A stretch of 64,000 bases of DNA from Escherichia phage 215Ecol030PP. A program made the translations under genes and the position numbers. Shown piece after piece: positions 1-46,705 of the stretch. The notes under the pieces are model-generated. The model ran no database searches and was not told the DNA's origin. It saw nothing but the letters and a program-made list of their open reading frames with translations. Positions within the stretch are counted from its first letter, which is position 1. The number at the start of each line of letters is the position of its first letter. The stretch is taken from sequence record PP328843.1, one strand, 5' to 3'.

Positions 1-2178
1 TTAGGCCGCAAGGGCCTTCATAGTTTTAGCGATTTGGGAAACTTCATCATCACTCAAAGAGTTACGATAACCGATGAAGTCGGAAACAATACGGAATTTC
101 TTGGTAAACTCAGCAACCATTTTATCACTATTTTTTGAAGCATTACGTGATAATTCATCAAAGAGATTAGTTACTGTCCAGATGTCATGACCGATGGTAT
201 CTTTTCCACCATTAAAATATACACCGCGCAATGAACTAACTATATTAGCGAGTCGTGTATATTCTTCAGAAACTTCATCTGTACTGAAGTACTTCATCAT
301 AAAATCTAGTTCAGGATACTTGATAATTTTATCAATATATCGTTGAGCTGAACTTGAATAACCTACGTACTTATCATAATCTACATCATCAAAAGCATCT
401 ACATATAAATCACGCAGAGTTTCAAAAATACATTGGCACTGACCGAGTTCTTTTACCTTTTTCTGCAAAAGCGGACGAATAACATAAAATTCATTAATGC
501 CAATAAGATTAGCCATACGAATCAAAATATTCATAGATGGATGACAAAGAGATGTAGTACCATCCATAGAGAAAATATCAGAACGATGCATATACGCTAC
601 ATAACCAGTAATTTCATCTGCTTCTGATGTGAGCGTAAATAATTCCTCTTTTTCCCAGCGCCCGTCTTTAATTTCAAACTTAAATGCTGTAGCAGCTTTA
701 GGACGAGGAGCTTTACTTTTAACTACCTTTGGAATATAGCTTTTAACTAAAGCTTCAATTTCTGACAAATAATGAATGTTAACTTCATCACTTTCAAACA
801 TCGCCATAATATCAGGAAGCAAATCAATCTGCGATTCTACTTCTGGATTAATAAACAGAAGGCGTTCGTTGTGATGAATATTCAAAGTGTTATTAAATTC
901 ACTATCATCTAACGCATGTGCTAATCCACGGACAATATTAACACGATTTTTAATATTATCAATAACGATATTAATTTTTGTTGTATTAATACCAAACAGA
1001 CGATAACTTGATGCAACGACTGAAGTTTCATGGCTTTGCTTAATGCGTTTCAGTCGAGGGTCAAGATTTACTTCATACACAACTCCCGCGTTGCATAACT
1101 TACTATCAGGTTCAAACATACTCTGCATCTTCTTATATGACAGATTTTTAGTCGTGAATTTGACTGAATTACTAATCATATAATCTCGAGCAGAATACCC
1201 CATCTTCATCAATTCACGATATGTGTGACGAGGAGATGTAGATTCTTTAAATCGTTTTACATCTTCATTAAATGCTTTCTCACTGAGTTCTTTAACTCGT
1301 TCAATAATATTTTTACGAGTGCGATCATCCAGTGAAAGAGCTTCACGTGATGGAGCAATATCAAGTGAACCCATTGGAAACTTAATGTAATTCACTTCAT
1401 TGCGAATGCTTAGCCAGTTACGGTCTCTAATAACACCATCGATAGGATAAACAATACCGCCATAGATAGCATATAATCCACCACGATCAGGCCAGTATCT
1501 TTCTGGATTTACGCCGTAATAATCATCAAAATCCGGAAAATAATCAATTTCGCGGTCAAGACCATTAATGATAGCCAAATCTTTGAATGGTCGCATGATA
1601 TAAGAAACTTCATAAGCAAAGTTTCTAAAGTCTTTTTCTTCAACTGGAACTACGATTTCAATACCAGTTTTATCATCTGGACCCATTTCTTTTACGAATG
1701 TAGGTTTAATCTGTGGACCATCACCATCCATGTAAGCTACATAACCACGAATTTCACCTTTATGATACGAAGTAATACTAAATGTATCAGTATAACTAAA
1801 CGGAGATTTAGAACCTAAACCAAATCCGCCAATGAAATCGTTAGATTCAGCTTTAGATGAACTGAAGTATGAATTATACAACCCAGGAGAATTATCATCA
1901 CCCTGAATATCAAAATCACTCATACCCGGACCAAAATCTCGGCAAACAAATCGCGGGTCTAATCGTCCTGGAACTTGAATGATAAATTTTTCAGGATTTC
2001 CATTGAGAGCATGGGCATCAATCATGTTAGTAATCAATTCACGGACTACTGCGCGAATCTTGTTTGTATACAAATCAGATGACAGAATTTTAAATACTTT
2101 AGGAGATGCTGTGATGCTAAATGCTTTTGATTTAGAACCATTACCAAGAATTGTTTCTTTTTCAGTGGTGATAATCAT
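1..2178 (-). CDS. rIIA: rIIA protein (membrane-associated rapid-lysis / exclusion-sensitivity protein), 725 aa
   Basis: Full-length 725-aa ORF; ATG at 2176-2178 preceded by GAGGAAA SD; sequence recognised as T4 rIIA; stop codon is window positions 1-3. Confidence 0.93.
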
Positions 2179-2188
2179 AATTTCCTCA

Positions 2189-2392
2189 TTAATTCATATT
2201 ACGCTTAATAACTTCAGCAACTTCTAGTAGTTCATCTTTAGTTGCAGTGTCGGATTGAATTTTATCTCTAATATCTTTAAAGCGGTTTTTAAATTCTTCG
2301 GCTTCTCCCATATCGAAAAAGCGTTGAATGATTCTATATTCTCGATGAACTGCTTTATCAAAAAGTTCTAAATTTACTTTATATGATTTCAT
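2189..2392 (-). CDS. small hypothetical protein upstream of rIIA (rIIA.1 position), 67 aa
   Basis: ATG at 2390-2392; tightly packed upstream of rIIA; early promoter immediately upstream. Confidence 0.6.
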
Positions 2393-2417
2393 TTCAATAT
2401 CCTCATTTGCCCAATTA

Positions 2418-2447
2418 ATTATACCACATCCTTGTGGTAAAGTAAAC
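2418..2447 (-). promoter_or_regulatory. T4-type early promoter (sigma70-like, extended -10 TGgTATAAT, -35 GTTTAC) for rIIA.1-rIIA
   Basis: Minus strand reads GTTTAC-15nt-TGGTATAAT; plus-strand attata at 2418-2423 and gtaaac at 2442-2447; near-identical copy at 50188-50217. Confidence 0.55.
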
Positions 2448-2979
2448 TACTGGCTCATCCATTCTTTACGAAGGTCAGCGTTATCTCCCATGAGCATTTC
2501 AAAAAGCTCTTTCCAGTTCTCAGGAAGTTTAACAACATCATATACTGGGTTTTGAATCATCTCACGATATTCAGATTTTTCCAAAGAGCCAAGTCCCTTA
2601 ATATAACGGATGCTATGTTTAGGTAGAGTATCTTTAGCACTCTCATATTCAGCGACTGTATAAAACCATTTTTGAGTTTTGCCAATTTGTGCAATAATTA
2701 CAGGCGTTTTAACAAAGCGAATACGTCCTTGTTCAAACAATTCTGGCCAATTACTAAAAAATCCGAGCAGAGAAGGATAAATAGAACCTAATCCAATAAT
2801 CTCTTAATTATGAGGTATTTCTATGGATAGCCCGAAGGCTATCCATCGTGATCTGCGTCTGTCATAATAGCGACATTCGCATAGTTCATTGAAGAGGATT
2901 TAATAGAACGACGAACATTGTTCTGCAATTTATATTTTTTCATATCAACGCTAGAAGAATCAATTTTTACAAATTTCAT
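2447..2979 (-). CDS. 60: DNA topoisomerase II medium subunit gp60, 160 aa, translated with a 50-nt ribosomal bypass: join(2979..2842, 2791..2447) on minus strand
   Basis: N-terminal 46 codons MKFVKIDSSSVDMKKYKLQNNVRRSIKSSSMNYANVAIMTDADHDG end at GGA (2842-2844) followed by UAG (2839-2841); coding resumes after landing GGA (2792-2794) with LGSIYPSLLGFFSNWPELFEQGRIRF...; 46+114 codons = 160 aa. Confidence 0.9.
2792..2841 (-). other. 50-nt untranslated coding gap of gene 60 (programmed translational bypass / ribosome hopping element)
   Basis: Exactly 50 nt between take-off GGA and resume codon UUA, beginning UAG and ending with matching landing GGA; take-off hairpin GGAUAGCC-UUCG-GGCUAUCC spans 2825-2844. 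Confidence 0.9.
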
Positions 2980-3778
2980 TATACACCTCATAGAACTTTT
3001 CATCAGGAATCCAACCGCGTTTAAATTCATTAAATGCTCGGCCGAATAATTTTGAATTCACAGTTATATTATTAACTGATTTCCATTTAGCAACTCCTGT
3101 TCGTTTATAATGATCGGGGTCATATTTCGTGACGTACCATTCATATAAATTTGGTATTAATTTTACAGCCTCTGGATTTGTCGCTGATTTATTATACCAT
3201 GGTTTCGCTTTTTCAAGTTCAGCTGCTTTTGCAGTAGCAGCAACAGTATTTCCAATACCAACTAATTTTTCAGCTTTAATGCGTGGATCATTAACATGAA
3301 GACGAAAAACTTCGCCCTTTTCATTTTTAAAGCATGTCATGCCTTTAATTCCAGGAAGCTTAACACCTTTATTAACACCGCACCATTCCTTTGGGTTAAA
3401 TGATCCTTTAATTAATAAGGCGCATTTACCCGATTTAATACTTCTCATTAAAACTTTATCTTTCATAAAGTTTTTTGACCATTCAGATACTGCTCTTTGA
3501 TGGTAAATTCTAGCGATTTCATATAATTTACTAGAACGTAAATATTTTTCAGTGTTTAACATTCTATTCATCGCATATGCCATTTCACGATTACGATGAA
3601 TTTTATATAGTAGAAAATGTGCTAAAAAGTGTTCACGAAAAGTCAGTTTCACCAAATTTTCTTTATCATCAGAACCTCCCATTGATCTTGGAAGGATATG
3701 ATGAATTTCACCCTTAAATTTAGAAACGCGGGTTTTACCCCGCACTATTAAGTCATTATAGATTTTTTCGTAATTCAC
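2960..3778 (-). CDS. mobA: MobA HNH homing endonuclease, 272 aa, inserted between topoisomerase genes 39 and 60
   Basis: HNH motif HHILPRSMGGSDDKENLVKLTFREHFLAHF; N-terminus MNYEKIYN matches the MNY..IY N-termini of the two other Mob-type ORFs in the window; apparent GTG start at 3776-3778; 3' end overlaps gene 60 start by about 20 nt. Confidence 0.85.
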   Translation of the reverse strand: MNYEKIYNDLIVRGKTRVSKFKGEIHHILPRSMGGSDDKENLVKLTFREHFLAHFLLYKIHRNREMAYAMNRMLNTEKYLRSSKLYEIARIYHQRAVSEWSKNFMKDKVLMRSIKSGKCALLIKGSFNPKEWCGVNKGVKLPGIKGMTCFKNEKGEVFRLHVNDPRIKAEKLVGIGNTVAATAKAAELEKAKPWYNKSATNPEAVKLIPNLYEWYVTKYDPDHYKRTGVAKWKSVNNITVNSKLFGRAFNEFKRGWIPDEKFYEVYNEICKN

Positions 3779-5306
3779 CTACTGTTATCCATTTACCATT
3801 AATCTGTACTTCATCATTTTCATTTACGATAATTGTATCGCCATTTAGTTCGAAAGTAAACCACTCGCCATCTTCTTTTTCTTCAAACGCTTTTTCACCA
3901 AGAACTAATCCAGTGATTGCGCAAATATCAAACAGTTCTTTGTTTTTAAGCATATCAGCATATGACATACCCCAACTGTTGAGAACTTTACCACGCAATG
4001 GATAACCACCATGAAGTTCTTTATCACGAACATCAATAAGATATCCGATAGCCGAATCACCCTCAGTCAAGAAAAGAGTAGTGTCAGCATCTTTACCACA
4101 AAGATTCGCTTTAATATGTTTATGAACCTTAGCTTTAGAAGCCTTTTTAGCCGCTTTAGTTTCTGCTGCTTTTTCTGCCGCCAATTTACGAGCTAATGCT
4201 GCTTCAATAATCGGCATTAAAATTGCTTCATTATTTAGAATAGCACGTGAAATCTTTTTAGCATCAAGTTGAATATGACTACGGATTTCACCAAATGGAG
4301 AAGTCAAACGCTCTTTAGTTTGAGAATCAAATCGCATGTTTTTCATATCACGAACAAACATAACGATAGTCAAACATTCTTTGACACGCGCTTTAGTTAC
4401 ATCAATTTTGAATTTACGTTTGATTTGTGGAATAAGGTCTTCACAAATATCATCCATAACGCAGTCAATGTGATGGCCACCATTCTTAGTGTGAATGTTA
4501 TTCACATAAGTTAATTGACGAAAACCATCCGGTGAACGACCAACCGCAATAGAACAATTTTCTTGTTCTTGAACGATAGCATGTTCATCATACTGTCGTG
4601 CATATTTCTTAAAATTGCCCTGAACCTTTTTACCATTAAAGGTAAATTGAATATCAGGATAAACTACTGCAAGTGTCTGGAGACGATCCAGTGTAATGTC
4701 AAGATAAACTTGGGACAGCTCATTAGTTTCAAATGACATAAAATCTGGAATGAAAGTAACACGAGTTCCTTTCCATTTTCCAGGAATAGTTTCCCAGGAT
4801 TTATTTTCCATGCCATTTGAACAACGAACTACAATATTATTTTGACCATCGCCAGTTTCACCAACAAACATCACAGAAAAAATGTTTGTCAAACTAGAAC
4901 CAACACCATTCATACCGCCAGTGACGCGTTCTTTATCATCACCGAAGTTACCACCTGCTTTTGGAATAGTCCATGCAGCAACAGGACCAGGAATTTCTTC
5001 ACCGGTAGGTGTTTTAACCATCGCCTGTGGAATACCACGACCGTTATCTTCAACTGTTACTTGATTGTTTTTAATAGTAACATTAATTTTATTTGCGAAT
5101 TTAAACTTAGTACGAATACCTTCATCTACTGAGTTATCGATAATTTCATCAATAAGCTTAACAAGACCAGGTACATACTGAACACTTTCCCATTTACCAA
5201 ACAGAAAGCGCTCATGCATTTCATTAGCAGAAGAGCCAATGTACATGCCGCTACGCTTTTTGATATGTTCAATATCGCTCAGAATTTTAATTTCATTCTT
5301 AATCAT
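3756..5306 (-). CDS. 39: DNA topoisomerase II large (ATPase, GyrB-like) subunit gp39, 516 aa
   Basis: GHKL ATPase and Toprim-type motifs (EDNGRGIP, GGxNGVGSS); ATG at 5304-5306 (the ORF track starts one codon upstream at a GTG). Confidence 0.95.
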   Translation of the reverse strand: MIKNEIKILSDIEHIKKRSGMYIGSSANEMHERFLFGKWESVQYVPGLVKLIDEIIDNSVDEGIRTKFKFANKINVTIKNNQVTVEDNGRGIPQAMVKTPTGEEIPGPVAAWTIPKAGGNFGDDKERVTGGMNGVGSSLTNIFSVMFVGETGDGQNNIVVRCSNGMENKSWETIPGKWKGTRVTFIPDFMSFETNELSQVYLDITLDRLQTLAVVYPDIQFTFNGKKVQGNFKKYARQYDEHAIVQEQENCSIAVGRSPDGFRQLTYVNNIHTKNGGHHIDCVMDDICEDLIPQIKRKFKIDVTKARVKECLTIVMFVRDMKNMRFDSQTKERLTSPFGEIRSHIQLDAKKISRAILNNEAILMPIIEAALARKLAAEKAAETKAAKKASKAKVHKHIKANLCGKDADTTLFLTEGDSAIGYLIDVRDKELHGGYPLRGKVLNSWGMSYADMLKNKELFDICAITGLVLGEKAFEEKEDGEWFTFELNGDTIIVNENDEVQINGKWITVGELRKNL

Positions 5307-5350
5307 CACTTATCCTCGTTTGGTTTCGGGAATATTATACTCCGGTAATC

Positions 5351-5373
5351 ATAAAGCTAAAGGCCCGAAGGCC
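5351..5373 (-). terminator. intrinsic terminator-like hairpin GGCC-UUCG-GGCC followed by U-rich tract
   Basis: Plus strand ggcccgaaggcc at 5362-5373 directly downstream of the 39.1 stop codon on the minus strand. Confidence 0.45.
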
Positions 5374-5375
5374 TT

Positions 5376-5636
5376 TTATTTAAAACGAATAGTTGAATCC
5401 TTAAAGAACAGCCCAGAACATACTGTTCCTTCTACTTTCTGCCCGGTAGGTCCAATAGCACGAAATCCAGTATGTTGGAAATCATTTTCAGAGCAACCGA
5501 GCCAGTTATATCCAGTGATTTCAATATTAGTAAAACCGCTTGAAGACAAAACTTTGGTTGCATTATCAGCATCAGTACATCCTATTAAAGACACTGCTAA
5601 TACTAATGCTGCAATAGAACGATTAACATATTTCAT
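5376..5636 (-). CDS. putative lipoprotein (39.1 position), 86 aa
   Basis: Signal peptide with lipobox-like LIGC; ATG at 5634-5636. Confidence 0.6.
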   Translation of the reverse strand: MKYVNRSIAALVLAVSLIGCTDADNATKVLSSSGFTNIEITGYNWLGCSENDFQHTGFRAIGPTGQKVEGTVCSGLFFKDSTIRFK

Positions 5637-5638
5637 AA

Positions 5639-5815
5639 TTACCCTTTAAGCAAGTCGTAAAATCCGCCATTCACATGCTTAGGAGCGGAAACTAACCGAA
5701 TAGCAATCCGATGACAATCAGGACATACATCAGTATCCCTTTCAGAAATTTTCTTGATTTTTTCGTATTCTTTTGCGCAGTCTTTGGATTGGCATTTATA
5801 ATCATAAAGCGGCAT
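5639..5815 (-). CDS. small zinc-ribbon protein, 58 aa (below the ORF-track size cut-off)
   Basis: Own translation MPLYDYKCQSKDCAKEYEKIKKISERDTDVCPDCHRIAIRLVSAPKHVNGGFYDLLKG; CxxxxC...CxxC zinc-ribbon pattern; fills the gap between adjacent genes exactly. Confidence 0.55.
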   Translation of the reverse strand: MPLYDYKCQSKDCAKEYEKIKKISERDTDVCPDCHRIAIRLVSAPKHVNGGFYDLLKG

Positions 5816-5817
5816 AA

Positions 5818-6237
5818 TTATTCCTTAAAGTGAGCTTTCAACATCTGATACAAGGACCATGCTTGTTCATTATTTTCAATAGTAATTTTCATGACTGGGA
5901 ATTCTGTGAAATCTTCTATTTGTTCTTGCTCTTCCTGCTCTTGTTCTTCAGCTGCCTGGTATGGATTTTCAACTTCATTAAAGAACTCGGCTTCGTTGCT
6001 AGAAAGCCAGATAAAGTTTTCGTCAATGACTGTACCTCGTGATGAATATCCAACTGTGCCAGTAGATGTCACAATTTTAGTAGGACGCCCGTAATAGTCA
6101 ACATCTAAAATTTTAAAAGGTTCCATACCTAAACGGCGTGCATAGATTCCGTTATCAGTATGGTCTTTAATAAAATTTTCTTGAGCTTGTTTATTTTTAA
6201 ATTGATACCATTTATTAACTTCAAATTTAATAGCCAT
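5818..6237 (-). CDS. hypothetical acidic protein (GoF position in T4 gene order), 139 aa
   Basis: ORF in gene train; glutamate/glutamine-rich linker [10 protein letters not shown]; assignment by position only. Confidence 0.55.
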
Positions 6238-23672: not shown

Positions 23673-24338
23673 TTATAGTAGTGTTCTTGTTCCACGAAAT
23701 ACTTCGAGCATTCTTGCATAAGATTTATTTGGAAATCCAGCTTCAATTGCTAATTTTTTAAGCTTAATAGCACCGGGTTTTCCAGAGTTTTCCCATATTT
23801 CTTTAATCTTTTCAATGTTATCCCATATTATTGGGTCACGTTTATGTGATGGTTTATTTCTATTATAACCATATGGATTATTAAGCAAAGCTTCTTTTCG
23901 TTTTGCTTTAGTTTCTTCTGACTGCTTTTTGCCTAGCTGGGCTTTCCGGCAAACATCACTAAATCCAAGATGTTTTGGTTTTCCTTTTTGAGCTTTTGAA
24001 ATTTTTTCTTTGGTTTCTGATGAAACTCTATAACCAATTCTTCTACCACCCTCTCCACCAATTTTTAAATTATAAGTCATAGGATCATTTACCACATCTA
24101 TTGTTACTAATTCTCTTTCAGCATCACGGGCTGATTTAAAATCTTTATAAAACCCAAGAATGCTTAAATTGAAATTTTTCTTACCATACTTTTTCTTGGC
24201 TTGTGCTAATAAAGTTCCTGACCCCATATAACCATCATTTAAATCATCGGTTGAATGAGTTCCATAGTAAATTTTATTATTAACTAAATTAGTTATAACA
24301 TAAGTATAATTATATTTCTTTTCTTTATGTCTTTTCAT
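23673..24338 (-). CDS. segA: GIY-YIG homing endonuclease SegA-like, about 221 aa
   Basis: GIY-YIG core (YTYVIT ... YYGTH) with repeated basic xxSxExKxK segments; ATG at 24336-24338. Confidence 0.75.
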   Translation of the reverse strand: MKRHKEKKYNYTYVITNLVNNKIYYGTHSTDDLNDGYMGSGTLLAQAKKKYGKKNFNLSILGFYKDFKSARDAERELVTIDVVNDPMTYNLKIGGEGGRRIGYRVSSETKEKISKAQKGKPKHLGFSDVCRKAQLGKKQSEETKAKRKEALLNNPYGYNRNKPSHKRDPIIWDNIEKIKEIWENSGKPGAIKLKKLAIEAGFPNKSYARMLEVFRGTRTLL

Positions 24339-24342
24339 GTCA

Positions 24343-25185
24343 TTAATCAACTGCTATTGGATGAATAGCATTAAACTTATGAAATGCTTCTGATTTTTCT
24401 TTACGCGAAACGCACATGCGAAGAACCTTTAGTGGTTCATCTTCTTCACCCAACGATTTTCGTTTTTCAATATTAGAAGTTTTCCAACGAGCTTGTTCTG
24501 GAAACTCTCTATTGATTTGCTCAAGCGCTCTATTATGTTTAGAATTACTGCGAATTGAACTACACCCACCAGGAGCTTGTGATTTTCCAGATACAACTAG
24601 ATATTTGAACAAGGCCAAATGTGGATAACCTTGATTAATTAAATTGAGAAATGCATACATATCTTCGCATAAATCAATTTTTCCATACCCAATTTGTTCT
24701 GTCGTAAGTTTTCCGAGGTCATACCATGTATTCGTGAATCCATATGAGTTTTCACGATAATTACCCCAAGATGAAGTAATTTTAAAAATTGGTAGACGAG
24801 CATGACCGTGATAATACCCGCAATCCATGGCATCCTCAACATATTGAATCAATTCATAGAACTGTTCACGAGTTAATTGATTAATTTTATCTACGCGCCG
24901 TTTATCGTCTCTCTTTCGTATTGAACTCATACGAATAGTAGTATCATCATCAATCATCCATATTCGTTGACCTGCATACATATCAGTAATTGCTTTACGA
25001 GTACCGGAAATTCCGTTTACATCATCAGGAATAGTTACAATTTTAGCTCTAGACCCATAGGCATCATAATAAGCTTTTTCTTCATGTTCACGCACTACAA
25101 TATGGGGTTCATAATCAGTCGGAAACATATCAAGGGCAGAAACTGCCCCTACACGTTGATAGCTCGGAATTACGAATTGAATCAT
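24343..25185 (-). CDS. GT-A type (DxD) glycosyltransferase, 280 aa; candidate DNA glucosyl-HMC glucosyltransferase occupying the T4 beta-gt locus
   Basis: DxD motif IWMIDDDTT; lies between segA and gene 42 where T4 carries the 351-aa GT-B beta-glucosyltransferase. Confidence 0.6.
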   Translation of the reverse strand: MIQFVIPSYQRVGAVSALDMFPTDYEPHIVVREHEEKAYYDAYGSRAKIVTIPDDVNGISGTRKAITDMYAGQRIWMIDDDTTIRMSSIRKRDDKRRVDKINQLTREQFYELIQYVEDAMDCGYYHGHARLPIFKITSSWGNYRENSYGFTNTWYDLGKLTTEQIGYGKIDLCEDMYAFLNLINQGYPHLALFKYLVVSGKSQAPGGCSSIRSNSKHNRALEQINREFPEQARWKTSNIEKRKSLGEEDEPLKVLRMCVSRKEKSEAFHKFNAIHPIAVD

Positions 25186-25823
25186 TTAAGTGCCTTACAT
25201 TTATCAAAATGGTATCTTGTCATATTTGGCCCACGTCCTTTTAGTCCGCAATGCGGACATATTTTTTCTATCAAATTATGAGGTTTTCCTTTACGATTTT
25301 TAGACATCGTTTCTTTAATTATTTTAGCTTTTTCTACGCCAAAAATTTCTTCATAAGTTTTACCAGAATTTTCCTTGGCTCGATTTATAATTCCATATGC
25401 CTGCTCATTTTTACCATACATTGGATTACCTTCGCCTTTCATTCTTTTAGAATGATCAGGACGCTTGATTCCACGAAAGGCATTTCCGCACTTATATCTT
25501 TCTTCTGGAGATAGTTTTTTACCGTACATTCCATTTAATTTGCCTGGAAAACTTCCTCCCCATGCTTCATTCTTTAAATTATATGAATCCGGACAATTAG
25601 CAGCATCTAAACAAGTTAAAATAATTTCTTCAACCTGTCTAAACATTGGTCCTTCATATAATATTTCTTTATTAAAGGATTTTATTCCATATTTCTTTTT
25701 AACATGTTGCCAAACTACACCCGAACCATCATAATTCGGGTTGTGACCATCATGACTTCCTATATACCACTTTTTAGTTTTAGGATGTTTATACTTATAA
25801 ACATGCGGCACATTTACTTCCAT
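25182..25823 (-). CDS. Seg-like GIY-YIG homing endonuclease with C-terminal zinc finger, 213 aa
   Basis: GIY-YIG core (VYKYKH...KKWYIGSHDG), repeated GKKLSPEER/GKNEQ segments, C-terminal CPHCGLKGRGPNMTRYHFDKC; ATG at 25821-25823. Confidence 0.7.
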   Translation of the reverse strand: MEVNVPHVYKYKHPKTKKWYIGSHDGHNPNYDGSGVVWQHVKKKYGIKSFNKEILYEGPMFRQVEEIILTCLDAANCPDSYNLKNEAWGGSFPGKLNGMYGKKLSPEERYKCGNAFRGIKRPDHSKRMKGEGNPMYGKNEQAYGIINRAKENSGKTYEEIFGVEKAKIIKETMSKNRKGKPHNLIEKICPHCGLKGRGPNMTRYHFDKCKALK

Positions 25824-44408: not shown

Positions 44409-45688
44409 CTATGCATGTTTTACTCGTTTTACCATTTCTTTCATTTTACCTAAATTCCATGGAACAACGCTAGGAGTTCCAAGATATCCGCATGTTCTTC
44501 TTATTGTGTTCATCTTTTTAGGATCAGTTTCTCCACAAATAGAACAAACAAATCCGTTTTCAGTAGGAGTCATTTCATGGGTACTTCCACACGTAAAACA
44601 TTTATCTACTGGCATATTAACACCAAAATAATCTAAATGTTGTGCAGCATAATCCCATACAGCCTCAAGACCTTTTAAGTTATTTTTCATATCAGGAAGT
44701 TCAACATAAGAAATGTGACCACCTGTCGCAATGAAATGATATGGCGCTTCACGAGAAATCTTTTCAAACGGAGTAATATTTTCTTCTACTGAAACATGGA
44801 AACTGTTAGTGTACCAACCTTTATCAGTAACATCCTTTACACTTCCATATTTTTCTGTATCGAGTTTACAGAAGCGATAACAAAGGTTTTCAGCAGGAGT
44901 CGAATATAAACTAAAAGCAAATCCAGTTCTTTCAGTCCACTGTTTAAGACGAGCATTCATTTTAGTTAAAATTTCTCGTCCAATATCACGACCGGCAAGA
45001 ATATTCAATTCGTGAATACCAATGTATCCTAGGGACACTGAACTTCTACCGTTTTTAAATAACTCAATTATGTCGTCATCAGGTTTAAGACGAACCCCGA
45101 ATGCACCTTCTTGGTAAAGAATAGGAGCAACAGTCGCTTTAACTCCTTTTAAGGAACTAATTCTACACATCAAAGCTTCAAAACATAAATCCATTCGCTC
45201 ATTGAATAATTCAGTAAATTTCTGTTCATTGAACTGTGTTCCAATATAAGAATCTAACGCGATGCGAGGAAGATTCAGTGTTACAACACCAAGATTATTA
45301 CGTCCATCAAGAATTTCATTACCAGTCGAATCTTTCCATACGCTCAAGAAACTACGGCAACCCATTGGAGAAACAGGAATAGATGAACCAGTGATAGCTT
45401 TATTGTTCTTAGCTGAAATAATATCAGGATACATCCTTTTGCTTGCACACTCTAGAGCAAGCTGCTTAATATCATAGTTCGGATCGTCTTTATAAAGATT
45501 AACACCTTCTTCAACAAACATAACAAGCTTAGGGAAAATAGGAGTTATCCCATCACGACCGAGACCTTTAATACGATTTTTCAGAATTGCTTTCTGAATC
45601 ATTCGTTCAGTCCAGTCAGTTCCCGTACCAAATGTAATTGTTACAAAAGGAGTCTGTCCGTTTGAACTGAAAAGTGTATTTACTTCAT
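44409..45688 (-). CDS. nrdD: anaerobic ribonucleoside-triphosphate reductase NrdD, exon 2 (C-terminal 426 codons including the split Tyr codon)
   Basis: Glycyl-radical motif RRTCGYLG near C-terminus; proposed splice joins ...QAYE-Y-EVNTLF... and gives 605 aa in total. Confidence 0.85.
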
Positions 45689-45714: not shown

Positions 45715-45919
45715 TCATGCTCGTTTATATGAAACAACAAAATTTGGATAGTCCATAGATATGCAACGTTCTTTTATAGTGCTAGGATGAAAATTTAGCG
45801 CTTTAGCTGCTTCTATATAAGACGTATACTTAATACCGTCAACAACCACATATTCAGGAACTTTATGAATAGTAGTCTTTATCTTTTATTTTAGTACAAC
45901 GTCTTTTTATCCATTTCAT
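45715..45919 (-). pseudogene. remnant of intron-encoded homing endonuclease: 18-codon N-terminal stub plus out-of-frame 56-codon C-terminal DNA-binding fragment
   Basis: Late-promoter-like TATAAATA (45949-45956), SD GAGGUGA, ATG at 45917-45919 then MKWIKRRCTKIKDKDYYS-stop; in the +1 frame ...VPEYVVVDGIKYTSYIEAAKALNFHPSTIKERCISMDYPNFVVSYKRA resembles the C-terminal helix-turn-helix tail of GIY-YIG intron endonucleases. Confidence 0.6.
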
Positions 45920-45948
45920 TGTTTCACCTCGTATTCATAAGATAATCT

Positions 45949-45956
45949 TATTTATA
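45949..45956 (-). promoter_or_regulatory. T4 late-promoter-like TATAAATA inside the nrdD intron
   Basis: Exact TATAAATA on the minus strand about 30 nt upstream of the endonuclease stub ATG. Confidence 0.4.
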
Positions 45957-46167
45957 CAAGATGACTGCTGCATGTCGCCATGCAGATTAGACTATATCTT
46001 CATCTTTCGATGCCGGCCGTTTCGAATAGCATTAGCTTCTATTCTACACCGCTACATTCATCACGGTTAGTCGTTAGGCATTTAGTTCAAAAGAACATTT
46101 AGCACGGGATTGTCTACTAGAGAGGTTCCCCGTTTAGACCGGTTTTACATGAGCCTGAATTAAATTA

Positions 46168-46705
46168 ACTCATACGCCTGGAATGCATCGTATACATCTT
46201 TTTCTGTTTTAGATTGAGCATAATTCAACGCATCAGCGATTTGCCATTTTTCTGCATCCTCAATATGTTTTGCATAGGTGCGTTTAACATAAGGAGAAAG
46301 TACTTTATCTACATTTGCAAAAGTCGTTCCGCCATATTGATGGGAAGCAACCTGCGCAGTAATTTGTGCCATAATTGCAGTAGCAACGCCAATTGATTTA
46401 GGAGTTTCAATCTGTGCATTACCTAGCTTAAATCCGTTCTCAAGCATTCCTTTTAAATCTACTAAACAGCAATTAGTAAATGGAAGAGCAGGGGAATAAT
46501 CAATATCATGGAAATGGATAATTCCGCTTTCATGCGCTTTCATAATAAAAGACGGGACCATATTTTTGGCAATGTGTTTAGACACAATACCAGCCATAAG
46601 GTCCCGTTGAGTTGGAAAAACACGAGAATCTTTATTAGCATTCTCGTTTAAAAGGTCTTTATTAGTTTTATGAATCAATCCTTCAATTTCTTTTTCAATT
46701 GTCAT
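46168..46705 (-). CDS. nrdD: anaerobic ribonucleoside-triphosphate reductase NrdD, exon 1 (N-terminal 179 codons)
   Basis: ATG at 46703-46705; ORF continues in frame into the intron for only 2 codons before a stop. Confidence 0.85.

Follow-up and report, generated by a model that had tools for sequence, protein, structure and literature searches.

How does gene 60 of Escherichia phage 215Ecol030PP (record PP328843.1) yield a single topoisomerase subunit when its coding sequence is broken by 50 nucleotides that open with a stop codon? The window (the whole 64,000-nt stretch of this record that was analyzed) carries the gene and all its associated features on the minus strand. Gene 60 bypassing is the textbook example of ribosomes hopping over a long untranslated stretch, and the T4 case has reportedly been the subject of work by Huang et al. 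1988, Weiss et al. 1990 and the groups of Atkins, Rodnina and Puglisi. The element in the window is almost certainly a functional copy of the bypass cassette known from T4 gene 60, borne on a MobA homing element by which the topoisomerase II large-subunit gene is divided into genes 39 and 60; nothing that we read in its sequence is contrary to bypassing.

All gene 60 coordinates and counts were reproduced by reading positions 2300-3200 of the window on the minus strand. The gene starts at an ATG (2979-2977) preceded by GAGGTG, and its first segment (2842..2979; codons 1-46, MKFVKIDSSSVDMKKYKLQNNVRRSIKSSSMNYANVAIMTDADHDG) is identical to T4 at the DNA level. The segment ends at the take-off codon GGA (2842..2844; codon 46, Gly46), followed at once by the stop UAG (2839..2841). 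The coding gap (2792..2841), annotated as the bypass region in T4, measures 50 nt by the usual convention of counting from the UAG through the landing codon (2841-2792), while 47 nt lie between the two GGA codons. The landing codon (2792..2794) is the same as the take-off codon, GGA in both cases, and next to it is the resume codon UUA (2791-2789), which opens segment 2 (2447..2791; codons 47-160 plus stop). This second segment runs for 114 codons to a stop at 2449-2447, encodes the TOPRIM C-terminal part of the topoisomerase subunit (Pfam TOPRIM_C, E = 6.5e-8) and is colinear with the subunit of phage RB18. The joined gp60 would comprise 160 aa (about 18 kDa), with a predicted Gly46-Leu47 junction reading ...DADHDGLGSIYPSLL... 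The first-pass annotation had placed the end of the 46 codons at GGA 2842-2844, before a UAG within a perfect hairpin at 2825-2844, and had described a 50-nt gap with a landing GGA at 2792-2794 and 114 further codons; on recomputation all of these figures were exact.

Its interpretation of this layout as the programmed bypass of T4 gene 60 is supported by the match to the annotated T4 region: over the stretch that begins with the gene 60 start and ends 59 nt beyond the landing codon, 246 of 247 nt are identical, leaving one substitution. In the T4 reference, the annotation of the homologous region gives gene 60 as a joined CDS and adds a misc_feature, "non-coding translational bypass region in mRNA". 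Judged by this match, the 247 nt contain every known bypass signal. Simple +1 or -1 frameshifting over the gap was ruled out: stops are found within the gap in all three frames (gap nt 1, 19, 32 and 36), and therefore a +1/-1 shift cannot join the two open reading frames and a long hop is required.

At the protein level, the joined gp60 aligned to the uninterrupted RB18 subunit with no gap at the junction (93% identity over 135 aa). In the RB18 alignment the 50 nt fall between ...GATCACGATGGA and TTAGGT..., which in the protein is ...DADHDG/LGSI... (the slash marks the junction); the junction alignment reads ...IMTDADHDG/LGSIYPSLLGFF... (also ...IMTDADHDG/LGSIYPSLL...), a conserved TOPRIM motif. 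The insertion is located at the invariant Gly46/Asp45 codon of ORF2, in the DxDxDG motif of TOPRIM. Such colinearity bears on whether ribosomes might simply terminate at the UAG, releasing a 46-aa peptide, with the downstream 114 codons being initiated independently, as might be supposed from the two CDS listed in many GenBank records of carriers (e.g., 141 nt + 294 nt) and from the GAG just upstream of the landing site. Several lines of evidence make this very improbable: i) in the landing frame, a UAA is separated from the resume codon by just four codons (GAG AUU AUU GGA), with no AUG, GUG or UUG among them; ii) the first in-frame canonical start is a UUG at codon 64 (2740), which has no Shine-Dalgarno sequence and whose use would lose 17 conserved residues (LGSIYPSLLGFFSNWPE); iii) the junction is within the conserved metal-binding TOPRIM motif and is colinear with uninterrupted homologues; iv) in T4, the sole bypass product found in vivo by mass spectrometry lands at the corresponding GGA.

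The signals expected of a bypass site were located one by one. The take-off hairpin, GGAUAGCC-UUCG-GGCUAUCC (GGATAGCC-TTCG-GGCTATCC in DNA), is a perfect hairpin of 20 nt (2844-2825), the stem of which extends to 10 bp (AUGGAUAGCC/GGCUAUCCAU) closed by the UUCG loop (2823..2846), within the 28-nt extended stem-loop form known from T4 (2848-2821). Folding of a 33-nt stretch gave -17.0 kcal/mol for the take-off stem (z = -6.0 versus shuffles, with 0 of 200 shuffles as good). The take-off codon sits in the 5' arm of this stem-loop, and the CC-UUCG-GG apex is identical to that of T4, where cryo-EM showed it as an A-site hairpin made up of three C-G pairs and the UUCG loop and where apex mutations that remove a G-C pair lower bypass. 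Upstream, a 5' stem-loop identical in sequence to T4 was predicted at 2854..2881 in both minimum-energy and centroid folds; it ends 9 nt upstream of the take-off codon, and this spacing equals the literature value. The nascent-peptide signal named in the literature, KKYKLQNNVRRSIKSSS, is encoded by codons 14-30 (2890..2940), and the first 46 residues are identical to those of T4, with Y16, Q19, V22, R24, Y33, M39, T40 and H44 all there. Within the gap, nt 18-47 are 80% A+U, and no GGN triplet occurs between gap nt 12 and the landing codon, the only other one being a GGG at nt 9-11 in the unscanned 5' part. The mini Shine-Dalgarno GAG (2801..2803) is separated from the landing codon by 6 nt, inside the 5-7 nt range expected for the T4 cassette. 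Beyond the landing codon the sequence is identical to T4 for 59 nt, a segment that in T4 forms the forward-slippage barrier and may do so here.

By statistics alone, the hairpin was rejected as remarkable: the window holds ten perfect hairpins with 8-bp stems and 4-nt loops, versus 2.1 expected from shuffles. Five of the ten have a UUCG loop on the minus strand (plus-strand starts 2825, 15391, 22432, 37207 and 39313); the four other than the bypass hairpin are presumably RNA-stabilizing or terminator hairpins of the T4 type. Could the hairpin at the UAG likewise be a generic RNA-stabilizing or terminator hairpin with no role in recoding? UUCG hairpins are recurrent in T4 according to the literature, five perfect 8-bp ones lie on this strand of the window, and CTTCGG occurs 30 times over both strands. 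Yet the hairpin in question is located in coding sequence, includes the last sense codon and the stop codon, and is not followed by a U-run; moreover, it is embedded in a complete set of bypass signals, which a generic role leaves unexplained. We accordingly give this explanation hardly any weight. The combination of features, i.e., closed frames, matching codons, gapless protein alignment and near-identity to the T4 element, exceeds chance.

Given the near-identity to T4, where each step has been shown experimentally, we infer that bypassing in 215Ecol030PP would proceed as follows. The ribosome would translate 46 codons and would be slowed and rotated by the nascent peptide within its exit tunnel (KKYKLQNNVRRSIKSSS together with residues that follow it). 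Once GGA occupies the P site and UAG the A site, the CC-UUCG-GG apex would fold as an A-site hairpin, blocking both RF1 and read-through. The peptidyl-tRNA-Gly would then leave the GGA while remaining on the ribosome, which would slide forward driven by EF-G and helped by refolding of the mRNA behind it. The GAG mini Shine-Dalgarno, 6 nt upstream, would aid re-pairing of the tRNA with the landing GGA, and synthesis would restart at the UUA to give a single gp60 of 160 aa. As the published efficiency of bypass in T4 is about 50%, a 46-aa terminated or dropped-off product would also be expected.

The same gapless protein would result if the 50 nt were removed from the RNA, by a small intron or other splicing, before conventional translation. 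Group I introns are indeed found in T4-like phages, and the window has one at 45968-46203. For gene 60, however, this route has a negligible probability: i) positions 2000-6000 returned no meaningful Rfam match at E <= 1, RF00028 included, while the genuine nrdD intron was detected elsewhere in the window; ii) 50 nt is far too short for a self-splicing intron; iii) bypassing of T4 gene 60 is reproduced by in vitro translation of the full-length mRNA. Rfam has no family for the bypass element itself, and none matched it, either at E <= 1 in 2000-6000 or at gathering thresholds over the whole window; matches to TeloSII_ncR30 and to the FdoG thermometer were far below thresholds and were set aside as chance. 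As for the nrdD intron (45968-46203, minus strand, in region 45750-46203), it scored 70.9 bits against RF00028. T4 positions 44877-45625, which hold the I-TevII ORF, have no aligned counterpart in 215Ecol030PP and are replaced by ~190 nt of non-aligning sequence, which suggests that this copy of the intron is without its endonuclease ORF.

Where does the interruption come from? Alignment with the cassette-free RB18 delimited a MobA mobile cassette of 1,106 nt at about 3888-2783 on the minus strand. Upstream is gene 39 (3756..5306, minus strand; ORF1, 516 aa), the other part of the split topoisomerase II large subunit (Pfam HATPase_c and DNA_gyraseB). RB18 homology ends near 3888, and the last ~44 codons of gene 39 (about 3888-3756) are a C-terminal extension encoded by the cassette. 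Next comes mobA (2960..3778, minus strand), an intact gene for an HNH homing endonuclease of 272 aa that matched PHROG 655 over its full length (E = 2.5e-57) and Pfam HNH weakly. It begins with GUG and overlaps the gene 39 end by 23 nt and the gene 60 start by 20 nt; T4 mobA is likewise described with a GUG start and a 23-bp overlap. Codons 1-46 of gene 60 likewise come from the cassette, which holds the N-terminal extension of gp60; they include a segment of ~47 nt that is homologous to, but diverged from, the host sequence it replaced. The 3' end of the cassette consists of the 50-nt gap plus 9 nt beyond the landing codon. According to Bonocora et al. 2011, as relayed in later papers, the site that MobA recognizes is broken up by the gap, which keeps the endonuclease from nicking its own carrier genome, and the cassette homes in mixed infection. 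By analogy, the 50-nt insert in 215Ecol030PP would shield the DNA of its carrier from MobA, and endonuclease and gap would travel as one homing cassette.

The distribution of the element was assessed in 653 related phage records, of which 41 contain the gap region; in the rest, alignment begins only some 10 nt beyond the landing codon. The recurrence in 41 records speaks to the suspicion that faulty sequencing or assembly produced the interruption, or that an inactivating mutation has made gene 60 a pseudogene, a view to which one GenBank record comes close in labeling the downstream piece "frameshift". An error would have to account for the same 50 nt turning up in 41 phage records that are independent of one another, plus a metagenome contig, and a pseudogene for a segment more conserved than the surrounding coding DNA and for two ORF halves that are both intact and conserved. 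Error or decay is thus exceedingly unlikely, and the functional bypass cassette remains the preferred reading.

The first-pass annotation had further taken the bypass as proof that the phage belongs to the T4 lineage that carries it. That conclusion fails on comparison of cassette with flanks in seven carriers (six with intact mobA, plus T4) and the non-carrier RB18. The cassette of 215Ecol030PP is 99.5-99.9% identical to those of the six intact-mobA carriers and 98.1% identical, with indels, to that of laboratory T4, while flank identities are 96.5-97.6% for gene 39, 95.1-96.8% for the gene 60 C-terminus plus rIIA.1 and 95.5-97.9% for rIIA. Moreover, the RB18 flanks are as close to 215Ecol030PP as those of any carrier, or closer, and the closest database matches of the 3' flank include non-carriers. 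The cassette as a lineage marker was therefore ruled out by the flank-versus-cassette identities. As it is more conserved than its flanks and patchily distributed (41/653), the cassette is best interpreted as a mobile insert, a homing cassette that has been spreading recently; this pattern agrees with the mixed-infection homing that later papers attribute to Bonocora et al. 2011. The phages vB_EcoM_G50 and vB_Eco_F26 illustrate the point: over the whole 1,106-nt cassette they are 99.8-99.9% identical to 215Ecol030PP, versus 96.5-97.4% in the gene 39 flank and 95.5-96.1% in rIIA. Given this flank divergence, 215Ecol030PP is, on the sequence evidence, a different phage from G50 and F26 that has the same cassette variant.

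The genome itself is that of a Tequatrovirus: the first 25 kb match T4 at 96.6% identity across 95% of that length, and the phage collection searched contained no record identical to these 25 kb. In place of the b-gt of T4, 215Ecol030PP has a T2/T6-type gene for a beta-glucosyl-HMC-alpha-glucosyltransferase of 280 aa (24343-25185, minus strand; PHROG 842, E = 5e-88), and the presence of such a gene in a T4-like genome makes the genome a mosaic. Two homing-endonuclease ORFs of PHROG 314 flank the glucosyltransferase gene (23673-24350 and 25182-25823, both on the minus strand); one of them is at the segA position, and the second, 213 aa long, is in a stretch for which T4 gave no alignment.

The single mismatch to T4 in the 247 nt is at gap nt 17 (2825), which is C in 215Ecol030PP and U in T4 and which pairs with the first base of the take-off codon, forming G-C rather than G·U. 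The first-pass annotation had held that the locus agrees with classical T4 in every element, and this is true of nearly all of them; the exception is the very hairpin that it had described as perfect, in which this pair is the sole difference. The U is shared by T4, EC128, CJY920, GRNsp7, Manna and one metagenome contig, while the C is also found in G50 (100% identity over 111 nt around the gap) and F26 (100% over 110 of the 111 nt aligned). The recurrence of C17 in G50 and F26, each sequenced independently, rules out a sequencing error. Nor is C17 new: File S3 of Manning & Atkins 2022 (bioRxiv 10.1101/2022.08.31.505936) already contains the sequence of G50 with GGCTATCCAT. A scan of metagenomes for the exact take-off region matched one contig (Ga0079226_10034289, 2314-2344), which has the T4-type U at nt 17, and IMG/VR viral contigs gave 0 exact-pattern matches for either the C variant or the Y-degenerate pattern; thus these collections are uninformative on the frequency of C17.

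In predictions on the 33-nt stretch, the change from U to C took the stem from -14.7 to -17.0 kcal/mol, making it 2.3 kcal/mol more stable. Nucleotide 17 lies outside the small A-site hairpin of the cryo-EM structure and can pair only after the take-off codon leaves the anticodon, and a construct with enhanced pairing at the stem-loop's base still makes nearly all of its landings at the normal GGA. From this position and the normal landing of that construct, the effect of U17C on bypass would be neutral or mildly favorable. A bolder proposal is that U17C is a naturally selected tuning variant of a sub-lineage whose MobA is intact and presumably active (215Ecol030PP, G50 and F26); we regard this as rather doubtful. 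If true, U17C could change the take-off rate, the landing fidelity (GGG at 9-11 versus GGA at 48-50) or the temperature dependence of bypass. Another departure from the common gap was noted in Salmonella phage GRNsp7 (ON720975.1, about locus 2860-2912), where the gap is 51 nt: GAGATTTATTGGA has one T more, and the mini Shine-Dalgarno is thereby 7 nt from the landing codon. This may be a homopolymer sequencing error or, since bypass does not depend on frame, a real variant.

The literature already covers the element together with its mechanism, mobility and distribution in T4 relatives, as well as the exact one-base variant, and since element, mobility and variant have been described, the locus adds little new biology. 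Its value lies elsewhere. On the one hand, the model of the extended stem-loop as a forward driver could be tested on this natural G-C variant, a ready-made substrate that is biologically validated and comes with an intact MobA. On the other hand, gene 60 of 215Ecol030PP should be annotated as a joined CDS, because automated annotation still splits the gene or calls a frameshift in most carriers. In the carrier records fetched other than T4, gene 60 appeared as two CDS, as "frameshift" or as "hypothetical protein", with the downstream piece usually starting from the spurious UUG at codon 64. Such two-CDS, "frameshift" and "hypothetical protein" entries in GenBank misannotate the bypass.

Comparison with known systems places the locus as follows. 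With T4 gene 60 it shares the host gene and the insertion point; mobA is intact in 215Ecol030PP, whereas it is a pseudogene ("defective") in the T4 reference, and the two gp60 proteins differ at four of 160 residues (V82I, K85T, E87K and A101T), none before residue 82. These four changes stem from a dense patch of substitutions at 2640-2730 of the window (minus strand; about codons 68-101 of gene 60), seen in comparison with T4, EC128 and RB18, in otherwise near-identical surroundings; it looks as if a short piece had been acquired by recombination with a more distant relative. With the uninterrupted gene 39 of T2, T6, RB18 and most Tequatroviruses, the locus shares the same topoisomerase subunit and flanks that are 96-98% identical, but those phages are without mobA, split or gap, and homology to them resumes 9 nt past the landing codon. 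Among described MobA elements (1097-1106 nt, with an endonuclease of 269-279 aa and "+9 nt in clade 1"; Manning & Atkins 2022, bioRxiv 10.1101/2022.08.31.505936), the cassette agrees with those of clade 1 in insert size, endonuclease size and the +9 nt. Finally, the "byp" elements in the mitochondria of the yeast Magnusiomyces capitatus differ from it in being of unrelated sequence, in their host and in the type of mobile element; their likeness to the gene 60 gap is an analogy of mechanism and does not imply membership in one family.
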